Source: Octopus vulgaris (lineage: Eukaryota). Taken from it: DNA of 64,000 bases. This document shows, one piece after another, positions 19,321 to 46,528 of the stretch. The notes beneath the pieces are model-generated. The model worked only from the letters and a program-made list of their open reading frames with translations. It ran no database searches and was not told the DNA's origin. The DNA is taken from positions 70,928,001 to 70,992,000 of the forward strand of contig OX597821.1 in the NCBI GenBank assembly GCA_951406725.2, in the 5' to 3' direction. Position 1 is the stretch's first letter, and the number at the start of each line of letters is the position of its first letter. A program made the translations under genes and the position numbers.

Positions 19321-19539
19321 ATATATATATATATATACAGAAATAAAGAGAGGGATGGTGAGAAAGAGATATGCTACTGATAACATCTAAAAGAAGGTGC
19401 TTTTTCATTCATCTTTAGTGAGTGTAGTTTTGACCAGGAGGAACTGATTTCATTAGACGATATCCTATCATCATCGGGTTTTTCGACCCTGAACCGTAAC
19501 ACTCTCCAGTTGATTAGTCAACAGATTTGCCCAAATCAA

Positions 19540-20500
19540 TGTTCACCGTCTCTTCCTGACTTCCAGCTTAACCTTTCTCTCTCGCTCCAATTTCTGCAGT
19601 CTCTTATTTCAATAGTTGTAAGTATTCTTCATACTATCAGGGCATGGAATCCCCTACAGCCAACCCTAACTGAAAAAAGCCATTACTGCTATCCTTTCTC
19701 CCTGCAATCCTTCAAAAGCTTCTCATAATTGACACATTTCTTTTCCAACGCTTGATCGCACGCTTCGCCCCTAGGTACTGTAAGCTCGATTAGTAACATT
19801 TTATTGCCTTTTCAGACGACAAAACTACACAGGGTTTTCTGAACAACCTTCTTTCTTATCCTATGATTGGGACCCGTATAGTAGCCCATTTGGCCTTTGT
19901 GCCGTCCTCGCTGGCTTTTCTTCAAGAACTTCACTGCTTCTATTGTTCCACCTTGATGTTGGTATTTCTTGTATCTTTTCTGTTCCAAGATATGAATTAG
20001 TGTAGCAAGCATCTTGTCGTGGTACCACTTGTATTGCCCTTGACTAAATGATGTTTTGCGCTCTGACAAGATATGCACCAGGTAGCCTTTTCTCCAGGGA
20101 GTCTCTGTAACTCTTTCACTTTCATTTCCCATCTGTACAGGGAGTGTGTCATACATAATCCGAAGCAGAAAGGAAATGCGGAATGGCTCCACTCTCTACA
20201 GCTGTGACCCCTCGGAGAAGTTCCATTTACTCCAGGCGCCCTGGGATACCCGTTCCACATCTTTTGATCTTCTATTTTCTTCCTGGTGTCGTATTTTCTC
20301 TGGCTCGCCGACCTCCTTTCTCTTGGTGTTGAAAATAGAACCGAGACCCCTCCGTCCTGTGTATGTAATTCCAATGTTGCTCCAGCATGGTTTCAGTCTC
20401 TGCCACTCTGATGCTGACCACCCACTTTTGCCCGTACACTCTGGTGATGCCTATATGCTCACCCGGTGTCCGTATACATTACCACAGCTCTACACTTCGC
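19540..20500 (-). mobile_element. Hero-type (restriction-like endonuclease) non-LTR retrotransposon 3' fragment, decayed
   Basis: [18 protein letters not shown]...HILS..KTSFSQGQYKWYHDKML and LLIELTVP.GEACDQALEKK...YEKLLKDCREKG...VRVGCRGF match the CCHC+RLE region of Hero elements; stops and frameshifts present. Confidence 0.85.
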
Positions 20501-28369: not shown

Positions 28370-29210
28370 TGAAGTCTGATCAATAAGTATCCGGACTGTT
28401 GCCATAATAACGAAATTAAAGCACGCAGAGTAAAGCTGTTTTGACACAGATTGACCTTGGACTCCGCTGTGCCACCGCACTAAGTTTTGGCGTTCTATCT
28501 CACTTCCGCTGTTTACAGCAGTGCTTGGAAGGAAGGTGTGTAGCATGTGATCGCTGCATTGACCATGACAGAAAGTTGTCATGGCGATACCTGCTCAGAG
28601 GCCGACGCAAAGTTACAGAAAGTGTATGGAGAGGAGTCTATGATCCACACACAAGTGCACGAGTGGTCCAGACGTTTCCAAGATGGCCGAAAAAAGGTCG
28701 ATATTGACGAACGTTCTGAGAGACCCACATCTAGCAGAACTGAGAAGAACATCGCAGATGTGCGTGCAGCTGTGAGGGGAAAATTGTCGAATCACCATCC
28801 GTGAGTTATCTGAGAATGTGCGGTTCAGTTCAGTCCATTATCGATGAAGATTTGCATATGAGATACCTGTCTTCCAAGTTTGTGCCAAAACTGTCAAAAA
28901 GACACTCGGGTTTCATTTGGAGTTCTCCTTGATTGTGTCAAGAACGATGAAAACTTTTTGGAAACTTTGCGTAGGCCTCTGAGCAGGTATCGTCAAGCTT
29001 TTGGCAAACTTTGATGCAGATTCTCGGCTCAACTTTCTCTGTCATTGTTAATGCGGCAATCACACGCTCCACACCTTTCCAAACACTGCTGTAAACAGCG
29101 GAAGTTTGCTAGAATGTTAAAACTTAGTGCGCATGCACAAACGGCTTCACTTTGAGTGCTTTAGCTTCGTTACTATGGCAACAGTCCGGATACTTATTGA
29201 TCAGACCACG
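28370..29210 (+). mobile_element. Internally deleted mariner element with long (~180-210 bp) inverted termini
   Basis: TA-flanked TIR gtctgatcaataagtatccggactgttgccata / tatggcaacagtccggatacttattgatcagac; ORF 28547-28804 KLQKVYGEESM....VHEWSRRFQDGRKKVDIDERSERP is a mariner HTH region; catalytic domain absent. Confidence 0.92.
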
Positions 29211-29723
29211 TATATGTATGTTTTTATACAGTAACGTATACGTAATATCTTCGTGTGTCTGAGCTGAATATATAAGGCGCGTTGGCAGGGATGTGTATGT
29301 ATGTCTATATGTGTGTGCGTACCTGTGTTTGTGCGTGTGCATGTGTGGGTCGGTGTCCTTGTGCGTGTGTGTAACTTTGTTCACGTGTTAATTACTATTG
29401 TACTAAGTCTATATGGTTAGAAACAACCACGTAGACAGTGATCCCGTTCGATATATTCATCATATATTTTATCTCCCCGTGAAATATGAACTGGTAGATA
29501 ACCTATGGAGGTTTCGTCATAGAAATGTGGAGATCGATCGAGCAAGTTTTGTTTCACTTTAAAGATTCACCAGTGATTGCTTTAATTATTTTCCTAAGCT
29601 ACTGAACTTTATTAGCTTACAGCTCCAGATAGAAATACGTAGATAAATGATGGTAGGTATAATGAAATTTATGTCACGGTAAATGCTTGATAACCAGGAA
29701 TATATAAATTTCGTAATAATACG

Positions 29724-29883
29724 AATTTCAACCGTGTTTCGTGGTCTGCAACCACAACAGCTCCTTTATAGGATCCAGTTAGCTCAATACATCATCAGAA
29801 GGAACCACGTACGGTTTCGGCCCCTATTCCTCTACCGTTTTGACGTGGCGGGGCCCCCACTTTCGGGGGTGTCTTCAGCTCTG
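29724..29883 (-). ncRNA. Tandem pair of atypical hammerhead-like cores
   Basis: Minus strand: CTGAAGA-cacccccgaaagtggg-ggcccc...ggggcc-GAAACC gtacgt GGTT, then CTGATGA-[36 nt]-gtggt tgcag accac-GAAAC acg GTT; stem I pairings are weak. Confidence 0.55.
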
Positions 29884-29964
29884 GTGTTGGGTGCATGTCT
29901 TCTTTCTTCTTCTTTCTTCTGTTTCCTGACCTTTTCGATGTAGCGTCAACGAGTGTGAGCGGGC

Positions 29965-30069
29965 GACTAACTTTCCTCTCAAATTCCCCTTTAAATACCT
30001 GCCACTAGCCTCCAGTAGGCAGCCCCAGCAAGTTGTCACGTGACACTGTCTCAACTTTATCTGACCAAT
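29965..30069 (-). promoter_or_regulatory. Candidate Pol II promoter upstream of the tandem HHRs
   Basis: CCAAT (30065-69), palindromic E-box TGTCACGTGACA (30034-45), minus-strand TATTTAAA (29997-29990), Inr-like TTAGTC ~29 nt downstream. Confidence 0.45.
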
Positions 30070-30950
30070 GAAGGCGCGTAGCCTTAGCCCACGCATTTTC
30101 TAAACGAGACTGTCGCCTATCAATCAGCGAGGCTAATTCAGTGTCATCTTGTCTCACCTAGTGATGTTATTTTTCTGCCGGCATGTTATGACTTTCAAGC
30201 CAGTTTTGGTCCTCCCGCTTCAGCCATATATAGAAGCTGGCTTTTTCGACCGCCTTCTATAGTGAAGTCATACCCTTGATAAACGCATATTGAATGTTGT
30301 TGTGCAAAATTCTCCATGGTGATAAACCGCTTGAGCTTTGTTATATAAATATCGCTATGCTTGCCATAATATTGTTTACATATTTTTATATGAAGTTGCC
30401 AGTTTCTAAATTGCGGCAGAGCTGGAAGAAGAGGTAAAGGAAGACAAATGTAGCGAGTTTGATCCTTCTTTCGAACGAACGGAGCTTCTCTGCTTCGTCC
30501 ACGGGGGTTCTGTTTGCGTTGGCACAGCGAGACTAGATACATGTTTAGAAAACATATTTTAAATGACTTCCGTGTGTGCGTTCATTTATTTATGCACATT
30601 CACATACATTATTCTATGTGTGTGTATATATAAATGCACGCATTGATATATGCGTGTATGTATATAATATTGTGTTTATAGATCGACATACATTCATAAG
30701 AATATACTTTATAAATAATATAATAAACTTTACATAATTTATGTATTTGTTTTATATATGCATCTATGCATGTATCATACACACACACACACACGCACAC
30801 ATACGCACACACACACACCACACACACACACACACACACACGCACACACATATACATATACGTATCAGAATGTACTTGAATATATAATTAAGAAAAAGAA
30901 AAATTCTCTCCTTCTCTCTCTCATTCTTTCTTTCTTTCTCCCTCCTTTTG

Positions 30951-32059: not shown

Positions 32060-32780
32060 AGACGATCGTCAAACCGAATAAAGACTACGACCACATCTAT
32101 CTTCCGTTTCCTTCATGGTCCCTTTTTAGTAAAGGAATGTTCTGGAGGGTGGTGACGAAGGCTTCATTGTTAAGGGGATTGTGTGTGGATACGTATGGTA
32201 GGGCTTTCGGTTGTAAATCCTTCTTTAGTTTGGGATGTCTAAATTCGTGGATACTGAGTTGTAGGACACGTTGAAAACCTGTATCAGTTAGTGGTGGTGG
32301 GTATTTCCTGCTGATGAGTATCCTTTAACTCATATAGTCGTGTGTCCCTGGGTCTTGTATCAGATACAATTTCTTTTTTTTTTTTTTGCTAGGTTGAAGA
32401 GGATATTCATTCTAGTGTGTCTGGGGTGGCATGAATTGGACGGTAGATATTGCTTGGAGTCCGTGGGCCTATAGTATATGTCCGTTTCTTCTATTTTGTT
32501 GTTGGATTTCTTAATGAGGATGTCGGGGAATGGAAGTTGTTGATGGCTATATTCCATCGTAAATTGAATGTTTATGTCAATTCCATTTAGAAGTGCTTGA
32601 AATTCTTTAAGTGCCTCTATATTTTCATGCCAAAGAATGAAGTAGTCATCTAGATACCTCTTCCAGTTATTTTCTATGCAGAGGGAGAATGGGCTTCCGT
32701 AGTTTTCAAGAACCTTACGATAAAGACTAATTTCTAGATATCCCATGACTAGATGAGGGGGCCATTCTCATACCCATCGC
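32060..32780 (-). mobile_element. Penelope-like reverse transcriptase fragment
   Basis: AMG.RMAPS / MGYLE...WKRYLDDYFILW...IQFTME...LPFPDILI...TDIYYRPTDSKQYL...SCHPRH are characteristic PLE RT and thumb motifs; frameshifted. Confidence 0.92.
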
Positions 32781-32825: not shown

Positions 32826-34125
32826 CAGGGTGTGATGGGTAAATTGTCGCCATTTTATATTTCTAATTTCGTGCATGCGCATTGTTTGTTCTTGATTTTG
32901 TCGATTGCACTGCATAGTAGGGTCAGTTGTGCACCGTCTGTGAGAGAAACAGCACCATAACACAATTCATTCTGCCAGAAATTTGGAAACGACCTGCTGT
33001 ATTGCTTGGCACTCGCGTCGGAAGCTCCAATTCGAACATTTCGAAGTGTTCGGCTGTCAATCTGAGGACAGTGCAGAGGATTAGGAAAGTGTTGGATGAG
33101 TCTAATGGTGATTACGAATGTACGGCATCTCGGAAAACTCACTCTGATCGTTCTAATAAGAAAAGAATTCCTGAGTTTGTTGGTGAGATCCAGGCCATGA
33201 TTGGCAACGATCCCTCCAAGTCAATCAGGTCCATCACCAGGGACATGGGAGTGTCTGAGTTTCTTATCAGGCAAGTAGTGAATGAAGATATTTGGTAGTC
33301 CTCATACAAGATGAGAGAGGGCAAATTTTTATCCCAAGCCATCAAGGGCAAGAGGAAAGAGCGTGCTACGAAGCTTTTGAACAAACTCAAGCATCCCCTC
33401 GAATCGAACATGCTTTAGTTTTTCTCAGACGAGAAAAATTTCTGCCAGGATGAGATAGTGAACACACAGAACAACTGTTGGCTTGCCGTGTCCCCAAAAC
33501 ATGCATCGAGAGTGATTAAAATCAAACATCCGGTCAACATCATGGTGTTTAGAGTGATCGCTAGTGATGGCGACGTTATGCCTCCATTCTTCTTTCCACT
33601 TGGCCTCAGACTTAACAGACATGCCTACATCAAGTGACTGGAGGAGGTAGTGCTACTCTGAATGAAGAGGGTGGCTGCTGGGAGATCATATATCTGACAA
33701 CATGACTCTGCACCATACCACCCAAGCAGGAGAACCCAGTCATGATTGTCAGAGAATTTCTGCAACCTCATCACTCCTAACGTCTGGCTACCTTAATCTC
33801 CAGACTGCAACTTCCTTGATTATTATGCGTGGCTGGGGCAGTTGAGCGAGAAACAAATAAAACTCCTTGTAACACCAAAGATGAACTGAAGGTAAGGATT
33901 ATGACAGCATTCACCAACTTAAACAATGAGGCCCTCCAGAAGAGTTGCGGGAGATTCCGAAGTCGTCTGGAGGCCGTGGTTGAAGCCAATGGCGATTTTA
34001 TTGAATAAATTTTCTCTTTAGTATTTCAAGATATTTTAATGTAAGTTTGGTAAATATATCTGTTAAAATGAGATGTCAGTGTTATTTTTATCTTTGCATA
34101 ATTTAGACGACAGTTTATTCACCAT
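32826..34125 (+). mobile_element. Tc1/mariner superfamily transposon, maT (DD37D) type
   Basis: Left end cagggtgtgatgggtaaattgtcgcc and a degenerate right TIR gacgacagtttattcacca; encloses a transposase pseudogene. Confidence 0.88.
32957..34008 (+). pseudogene. maT/DD37D transposase pseudogene
   Basis: FSDEK...QHDSAPYH...SPDCNFLDY with 37 residues counted between the 2nd and 3rd Asp; ends RLEAVVEANGDFIE*; start ATG appears mutated to ATA; several in-frame stops. Confidence 0.9.
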
Positions 34126-45500: not shown

Positions 45501-45710
45501 AGTTTCAAATTTTGGCACAAGGCCAGCAATTCTGGGGGAAGTGGGTAAGTCGATTACATTAACCGCAGTGTTCAACTGGTACTTATTTTGTCGACCCCGA
45601 AAGGAGGAAAGGCTGAGTTGTTCTTCGTGGGGTTTGAACCCAGGACAGACAGACAAAATGGCGCTAAGCATTTTGCCTGGCATGTTAACGCTTCTGCCAG
45701 CTCGCCGCCT
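45501..45710 (-). mobile_element. SINE family B
   Basis: Ends cttctgccagctcgccgcct, the 5' end on the minus strand. Confidence 0.9.
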
Positions 45711-45729
45711 TTAAACTAGGCAAAATATT

Positions 45730-45943
45730 CCTTTCTATTCAAGGCAGAAGGCCCGAAATTTTGGTGGAGAGGGCCAGTCGATTAGATCGACCCCAGTACG
45801 CAACTGGTACTTAATTTATCGACCCTGAAAGTATGAAAGGCAAAGTGGACCTCGGTGGAATTTTGAACTCAGAACGTAAAGACAGACGAAATGCCGCTAA
45901 GCATTTTGTCTGTCGTGCTAACGTTTCTGCCATCTCGCCGCTT
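45730..45943 (-). mobile_element. SINE family B, full-length, with 19-bp flanking direct repeat
   Basis: Minus strand gcggcgagatggcagaaacgttagc...ttctgagttcaaaattcc...; flanked by ttaaactaggcaaaatatt / ttaaactcggcaaaatatt. Confidence 0.92.
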
Positions 45944-46528
45944 TTAAACTCGGCAAAATATTAACGAAGTAAAACAAAACTATTTTATTATATTATTGGT
46001 TTCGGTATTATAGATATTTGGACAAGTTTTGCAGATAATTATTATCAAAATCAATGCAATTTATTACAGCTGCTTCAACAGTAACTATAGTAACCAACTC
46101 TACAATAAATATAGATTGAGGCAAAATATCAGACGTTTCTAGAAGCCTGTATGGCCATTTCTCTCTTGACACATAGAAAGTGCAGTAACGAAATATGACA
46201 AGAACTTATTTTATTTTCCTTTTCTGGTAGTGGTGGTAGTAATGCTGGTGGTGGTGGTGATTGTGGTGGTGGTGGTGGTGGTGGTGGTGGTCGTGGTGGT
46301 GGTGGTCGTGGTGGTGGCGGTGGTGGTGGTGGTGGTAGATGGTTGGAAACGATCGTAATGACGGTACACAATGCTTGTCAATCCATAGGCTTCAGATTCA
46401 ACAAGTTCATTAAAGCACCACGCCTCTCTATTCATACACACACAGACGCAGGTACATACACACACATATATGAATTCATACACACATATACACACATAAC
46501 GACATACATATACGTGTATGTATGTGTG

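Follow-up and report, generated by a model that had tools for sequence, protein, structure and literature searches.

A split-core hammerhead fold in the 3′ UTR of an octopus LINE and a possible circular RNA template

Introduction

The minus strand of a short stretch of octopus DNA carries promoter-like words followed by two sets of hammerhead core words, which raises the question of what kind of ribozyme and what kind of element lie behind them. The stretch is part of a 64-kb piece of the Octopus vulgaris genome (contig OX597821.1, positions 70,928,001 to 70,992,000; hereafter the window, in whose numbering all positions are given). The original prediction placed there a promoter and two tandem atypical hammerheads, each with an insertion after CUGANGA, together forming a self-contained small RNA unit from which double cleavage would release an RNA of ~75 nt. 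Apart from a final hairpin, the words it named are present as described: ATTGG/CCAAT, the palindromic E-box, TATTTAAA and the Inr-like word on the minus strand; CTGAAGA at 29878, GAAAC at 29818, CTGATGA at 29798 and GAAAC at 29740; the helices ggcccc/ggggcc and gtggt/accac; and both GTT triplets. The loose CTGANGA..GAAAC pattern is weak by itself, with 12 matches on the two strands of the 64-kb window.

Here we assign the region to the 3′ UTR of a LINE of the RLE type and regroup its core words into one split-core hammerhead. We consider it reasonably probable that this hammerhead cuts the RNA of the element and that the element is copied via an RNA circle. The features are collected in Table 1.

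Table 1 Features of the LINE copy, its predicted ribozyme and a related tail in the window
Feature	Position	Strand	Basis
5′-truncated RLE-type non-LTR retrotransposon copy, 539 nt	30261-29723	minus	89% to family majority
Last codons of RT-RLE ORF, residues 1105-1130 of 1136 (26 codons)	30176..30253	minus	tblastn 96%
Promoter-like words in 3′ UTR	29965..30069	minus	sequence inspection; function putative
ATTGG (reverse-read CCAAT)	30069	minus	seen in sequence
E-box palindrome, 12 bp	30045-30034	minus	seen in sequence
TATTTAAA	29997-29990	minus	seen in sequence
Inr-like TTAGT	A at 29968	minus	seen in sequence
P5, 5′ strand of closing helix, contains CTGAAGA, pairs with 29791-29781	29870..29880	minus	8.64 of 10 pairs versus swap null 6.0
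P0, GAAA-capped hairpin inserted at the A9/G10.1 link, between P5 and stem II	29856..29869	minus	fold analysis
Stem II, 5′ strand, G10.1 first, pairs with 29824-29819	29850..29855	minus	swap control
P4, 5′ strand, extends stem III, pairs with 29811-29805	29842..29848	minus	6.28 bp versus swap null 3.99
Block S: stem III strand CGGT, A17 at 29833, stem I strand 29832-29827	29827..29837	minus	alignment
Predicted cut	29833/29832	minus	analogy with hammerheads
Block G: stem II 3′ strand, GAAA (29818-29815), stem III strand	29812..29824	minus	alignment
Block C: stem I strand (29804-29799), CUGAUGA (29798-29792), P5 3′ strand (29791-29781)	29781..29804	minus	alignment
Family-specific hairpin gtggt/accac + GAAAC, outside conserved ribozyme	29736..29755	minus	family and tail comparison
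Decayed tail of second RLE LINE family, damaged ribozyme ~19560-19440	19391..20189	minus	76% to L221 (intact relative)

Results and discussion

The locus is the 3′ end of a repeated LINE

A 23-mer from the repeat has 842 exact matches in the genome and its reversed control has none, so that at least 842 copies exist; the prediction of a repeated mobile element survives the single-copy check by which it might have fallen. A repeat search yielded 2279 first-look candidates, of which 40 were scored, at 88-90%. Among 29 other copies the 3′ end is constant to within a few bases of window position 29723 and the 5′ ends vary, the combination of fixed 3′ ends and variable 5′ truncation that marks RLE non-LTR retrotransposons. 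The element has no poly(A) tail, and neither the window copy nor any of 13 long copies shows a clear target-site duplication. Solo copies, in thousands, are dispersed with unrelated flanks, as in the mostly non-specific insertion described for the HERO clade (PMC4640811; here and below, a cited paper stands for the part of its text that was available).

The majority sequence of 17 long copies, each 2-5% from that majority, defines a full unit of 3.9 kb with a single ORF of 1136 codons. The ORF contains, in order, an N-terminal zinc finger, an RT (Pfam RVT_1, 8e-22), a CCHC knuckle and a PD..E.K restriction-like nuclease motif, the last read by eye and matched by no Pfam model. Among solved proteins, those of R2 and LINE-1 come closest, the best being an R2 protein, and protein homologues at 41-66% include those of lancelet, coral and fish. 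A GIY-YIG nuclease, which together with a telomerase-like RT would mark a Penelope-like element, has no match in the element protein, and Pfam searches of window ORFs near the 3′ UTR returned nothing relevant. One ORF with an RT followed by a CCHC knuckle and a PD-(D/E)xK nuclease is the arrangement of RLE non-LTR elements, and the element is, as judged from its sequence, an autonomous LINE of this type. On the strength of its C-terminal motif we label it, provisionally, as HERO-like. Elements of the HERO clade share the single ORF with RT, CCHC knuckle and RLE as well as the dispersed, non-specific insertion (PMC4640811, PMC7650587); no description of a HERO ribozyme, terminal repeat or circular intermediate was found in the literature searched, and 5′ HDV-like ribozymes are known from R2-type LINEs (PMC4209133).

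The window copy comprises the end of the ORF and the 3′ UTR of this 3.9-kb element and is an ordinary 5′-truncated product. The region is therefore not a small RNA unit of its own. The final hairpin of the original prediction (aaatttcgta..tacgaattt) is imperfect, its first arm as written being absent from the sequence; it straddles the 3′ end of the element at 29723, with the distal arm in the flank, and occurs in no other of 29 copies.

One hammerhead fold in the 3′ UTR

The 3′ UTR is predicted to hold one hammerhead of six helices with its blocks in the order S-G-C (cut site, GAAA, CUGAUGA; Table 1). The partner strand of stem II lies upstream of the cut, and two extra helices, P5 and P0, occupy the A9/G10.1 link, P0 being in most tails a single hairpin that exactly fills the gap from P5 to G10.1. 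The window copy retains the core letters of the ribozyme and carries four helix lesions, comprising one mismatch each in P5, P0 and P4 and a G-U as the first pair of stem I. The minimum-energy fold of this copy keeps P5 and P4 and loses stems I-III, in a model that leaves pseudoknots out, and Rfam has no match in the window at gathering score.

This arrangement preserves part of what had been proposed. The helix ggcccc/ggggcc is the true stem II, and the 16-nt hairpin, P0, does interrupt the link from the CUGANGA side to stem II. The remaining parts take other roles: there is one ribozyme and not two, CTGAAGA is a strand of the closing helix P5, and the predicted cut follows GTA, within the supposed loop II and at neither GTT, and release of a ~75-nt RNA is not predicted. 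The weakness of stem I had been put down to decay of this copy; stem I is equally weak in the family majority, because the strands had been paired with the wrong partners.

We give almost no credence to the original model of a promoter followed by two type I-like hammerheads in tandem, from which a 75-nt RNA would be released. The two word pairs and the two helices preceding GAAA do exist and are kept within the family, but neither core has a stem I. Among 25 distinct tails of related elements, the upstream CUGAnGA, whose letters are used by P5, occurs in one and a GAAAC after the core in five. The first pair of a stem II directly after CUGAnGA forms in 2 (offset 0) or 13 (offset 1) of the 25 tails, compared with 25/25 for the upstream strand. 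Because no stem I can form, readings as tandem type I cores, as a double-hammerhead dimer and as type III were all rejected.

Many P0 loops of relatives contain a 6-nt palindrome (TGATCA or TGGCCA; L133, L137, L143, L146, L157, L162, L189 and others), a possible signal for kissing-loop dimers, in place of which the window family has a GAAA loop.

Covariation among relatives

Of 303 related loci matched in a scan of metagenome contigs, 80 formed the set analysed here. A descriptor of the S-G-C order with stems I and III has 35 plus-strand matches in these 80 loci, none on the minus strand and 0.05 per shuffle, and detects the fold in 24 of the 33 whose sequence runs on for 300 nt or more past the ORF. 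The nine failures consist of four that are variant-like on inspection (L183 only partly), one decayed tail and four without the motif. The 25 tails are what remained once two ORF-internal matches had been dropped, the window copy and the majority sequence of its family added, and near-duplicates merged; they belong to elements whose proteins are 37-61% identical to that of the window family.

Stem II, a helix outside the descriptor, forms 4.68 bp with the strand 19-26 nt upstream of the cut, compared with 3.15 for swapped partners (maximum 3.96). P4, likewise outside the descriptor, and P5 also exceed their swapped controls (Table 1), and P5 begins right after A9 (offset 0) in 24/25 tails. In a plain, unguided MAFFT alignment that includes the window copy, 81.8% of the cells of the five named helices are paired, compared with 57.1% after shuffling, a control inflated by relatedness, and 32-43% when the helices are slid; both sides change in 27 of 29 pairs. 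Covariation upholds a hammerhead of unusual architecture, since the S-G-C pairing covaries in the 25 tails, and does not uphold the two proposed cores. Conservation of core versus flank within the family is uninformative owing to the neutral decay of copies.

The GAAA and CUGA.GA columns are invariant in the 25 tails and N7 is free. The triplets, words that the descriptor requires, are GUU in 9, GUC in 7, GUA in 7 and AUA in 2, and N17 is never G, again as the descriptor demands. CUGAnGA, GAAA and an NUH with A15.1-U16.1 are accordingly all in place, as are three covarying helices flanking the core, of which I and III are partly imposed by the descriptor and II is independent of it. Two tails missed by the descriptor (L135 and L142) have the same fold with UUGACAA, a swap of the C3-G8 core pair to U3-A8. 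This change makes sense only if the letters form a hammerhead core, and the same replacement is known from Schistosoma elements (PMC4209133). By every letter and helix that can be read, then, the fold is a hammerhead, and by analogy with its class it very probably enables the element RNA to cleave itself.

Comparison with known hammerhead architectures

Eckert et al. 2023 note that in known hammerheads no more than 1-2 nt separate CUGAnGA from its stems, and they take this limit as the basis for their six permutations (PMC10085705); the core insertions in Perreault et al. are, in the text available, 1-2 nt long. Nearest to our fold are the type-SGC hammerheads (HRIMA-1 and variants), which share the S-G-C order, a pseudoknotted core, all conserved letters and a short linker joining a stem I strand to a stem II strand (PMC10085705). 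In those ribozymes, which come from metatranscriptomes and have been shown to cleave, block C is unbroken and stem II lies within 1-2 nt of CUGAnGA (PMC10085705). In the octopus fold, by contrast, stem II is completed by a strand upstream of the cut, the A9/G10.1 link contains P5 and P0, an animal retrotransposon carries the ribozyme, and cleavage is a prediction from sequence. Since block C ends in P5, whose bases take the place that stem II would occupy directly after CUGAnGA, the fold is not type SGC as defined, and that class was rejected. Types I, II and III have the circular order C-G-S and match curated models; here the order is S-G-C and Rfam has no match. Judged by the 1-2 nt rule (PMC10085705), a core interrupted at A9/G10.1 might fail to fold or might act slowly.

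We found no paper on the S-G-C split-core wiring or on hammerheads in the tails of HERO or RLE LINEs, in a search that was thin on subscription papers, Repbase Reports and the supplements of PMC10085705. A known ribozyme class occurs here in altered form and in an unexpected host, whose life cycle is possibly new among LINEs. We put forward tentatively the broadest reading, in which the fold is a seventh natural hammerhead wiring whose core opens out at A9/G10.1 to form a junction of helices, and serves within one genome as an active module of two mutually unrelated classes of retroelement, RLE LINEs and the Penelope-like elements called Naiads (and of non-coding units), enabling autonomous LINE replication through a 3.9-kb circular RNA by reverse transcription of more than unit length. 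If this is true, a hammerhead architecture would break the stated rule of no insertion after CUGAnGA, and a LINE clade would gain a Penelope-like life cycle, which would answer how a LINE recovers its promoter each round and would explain the apparent absence of hammerheads from Naiads. The S-G-C split-core fold escapes standard descriptors and Rfam and has about 8,000 pattern matches in the genome. A 100-nt RNA together with an R2-like protein, of a class used in genome engineering, would allow a direct test of the long-standing proposal of a circular template for autonomous retroelements.

5′ ends of copies and the question of cutting

No pile-up of 5′ ends appears at the predicted cut. Three copies genome-wide fit a start at this site, compared with two and none at control sites, and two of the three are true starts; in a sample of 29 copies, one begins there. 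Cutting therefore has no footprint in the genome at 5′ ends. A pile-up at the Inr, hinted at by 4/29 copies at –240 to –245, was rejected, as the genome holds three such matches and 8 further Inr-start matches are mostly 4-nt deletions. In copies of the family the TATA word is retained in 31/38 and the E-box core in 27/38; promoter-like words were not seen in the shorter UTRs of relatives.

The missing footprint favours a reading in which the hammerhead-derived fold cuts rarely or never and serves as an RT-binding structure, new copies arising from uncut read-through of tandem arrays. Precedent exists in a Penelope-like element that in vitro inserts without need of cleavage and for which no reads start or end at the site (PMC11167929), and the core, broken at A9/G10.1, lies beyond known natural variation. 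We nevertheless judge this reading improbable, given that relatives at 37-61% protein identity, and a retroelement of another class, keep every catalytic letter, a GUH/AUA triplet and the compensatory U3-A8 swap, that read-through copying can only shrink the front pieces described below, and that no whole dimer occurs among 22 long loci.

Copies that open with their own 3′ end

A search with the 5′ region gave 40 matches from 149 candidates, and 30 loci with the 5′ region were examined. In 17 of these the copy extends to the first two bases of the unit, and 15 of the 17 open with 16-1014 nt of their own 3′ end (the front piece), joined to the unit at one exact point in all 15; the two that lack a front piece have flanks in common. 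Of the front pieces, 11 exceed 114 nt, the distance to the predicted cut, and six exceed 250 nt, the distance to the predicted start site. A subfamily letter 10 nt from the end is the same in the front piece and the own 3′ end of 11/11 scorable copies (p 0.005 to 1e-6), and nine of these 11 carry the letter that is present in 13/57 solo copies. Longer front pieces match the own 3′ end at most other diagnostic sites with few mismatches, the comparison being confounded by an inversion in one copy. In metagenome loci, where contigs of repeats may be collapsed, the ORF starts 184-322 nt after the motif in eight.

The agreement in subfamily letters tells against insertion of truncated new copies precisely before existing full-length ones, with a ribozyme that merely trims transcripts. 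Site-specific insertion and occasional tandems are known among other RLE elements (PMC4640811), and the lengths of front pieces match those of solo copies (KS p 0.93), which fits such insertion as well as the life cycle that we favour below; given also the thousands of dispersed solo copies with unrelated flanks, we hold it to be very improbable.

Partial tandems with such a pseudo-LTR are a hallmark of Penelope-like elements, and the 15/17 copies that start with their own 3′ end, as those elements do, suggest a circular RNA template. The octopus element further resembles them in a repeated end that contains both ribozyme and promoter, in priming internally and in a proposed circular template (Cervera and de la Pena 2014, PMC4209133; Frangieh 2024, PMC11167929). 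Penelope-like elements differ in their minimal type I hammerheads, telomerase-like RT and GIY-YIG nuclease (PMC4209133, PMC11167929), where the octopus element has a LINE RT, a C-terminal restriction-like nuclease and a rewired ribozyme. Non-LTR retrozymes also form tandem genomic copies, and in vitro RtcB closes their self-cleaved monomers into circles (Cervera and de la Pena 2020, PMC7229834); they are non-coding units of 170-400 nt with a type I hammerhead (PMC7229834), unlike the autonomous 3.9-kb unit described here.

In the life cycle that we favour, the promoter-like words of the front piece would start a transcript that holds the ribozyme twice, and two cuts would free a unit-length RNA of 3.9 kb, whose ends a host RtcB-type ligase or self-ligation would join into a circle. 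The RT would prime ~114 nt downstream of the cut and ligation joint, cross the joint and sometimes exceed one full turn, thereby rebuilding the front piece and the promoter. For promoter use, ligation and a circular template our confidence is moderate. Because copies end ~114 nt downstream of the cut, an RT working on cut RNA must cross the cut to make longer products, and nearly all copies extend beyond that position. A circle would account both for the absent pile-up at the cut and the Inr and for front pieces that reach past the promoter, which linear RNA from that promoter could not template.

The same anatomy would result if the ribozyme cuts but the RNA stays linear, with the RT priming at the joint and, on reaching the cut 5′ end, switching by template jumping or strand transfer to the 3′ end of that unit RNA or of a different one to give partial tandems. 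Template jumping is known for R2-type RTs. Such jumping would be expected to leave run-offs or scars at a fixed end, yet the starts at the cut are as few as reported above and the letters of the cut site are kept as well as their neighbours in 58 copies; we regard this linear route as unlikely.

Among the matches listed from four RNA runs, no contig spans the joint, and these contigs carry no information on starts or ends. In one RNA contig from run X2 (L035:2133-2311) the sequence steps back by 179 nt where the 3′ end of the element is reached, as a short tandem or a small circle might give; this is a single contig. A conserved two-hairpin motif lies 100-165 nt past the cut, at the start of the element, where the RT would prime (L118, L120, L134, L143, L146, L155, L179 and L188, and the L035 joint). 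One locus (L079, G000:C15) is an internally deleted unit of the window family, ~900 nt long with the head-to-tail joint retained, and possibly represents a non-autonomous derivative.

Wider spread of the fold

A loose S-G-C pattern has 8090 matches in the genome, compared with 901 in the control. Of 20 stretches picked for inspection from the first 100 matches listed, four end other RLE LINE families, one of which has a decayed tail in the window (Table 1), and most of the remainder have the same upstream stem II with no RLE ORF. One stretch (L222) has its match at the 3′ ends of octopus Naiad consensus sequences already in print, one of which is flagged 'HHR half core' (PMC8557442). Canonical hammerheads were reported to be absent from Naiads, some of which keep core words (Craig et al. 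2021, PMC8557442). With the window element these Naiads share the S-G-C fold at their tails and the partial tandems; they differ in RT class and nuclease, and the fold is not described in the available part of PMC8557442.

A sister RLE LINE family in the same genome (L208-L210) differs from the window family by compensatory ribozyme changes in stems I, II and P5. An abundant non-coding unit of ~760 nt (L211-L215, L228-L257; 2559 first-look candidates) has the same fold and partial head-to-tail tandems, with a tract resembling a 3′ splice site before stem II. A search of 1.5 kb around 30 copies revealed no RT, and the family is either retrozyme-like or Naiad-derived.

Other elements in the window

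Microsatellites are dense across the 64-kb window (196 tandem-repeat rows), and SINE-like repeated elements occur, for example at 45514-45962. A decayed RT fragment on the minus strand at 32090-32770 has no Pfam hit; from its motifs we take it to resemble a Penelope-like RT. Two decayed remnants of DNA transposases lie on the plus strand, one at 28544-29100 with a Mos1-type HTH (Pfam HTH_48) and one at 32921-34010 that is Tc1-like by eye.
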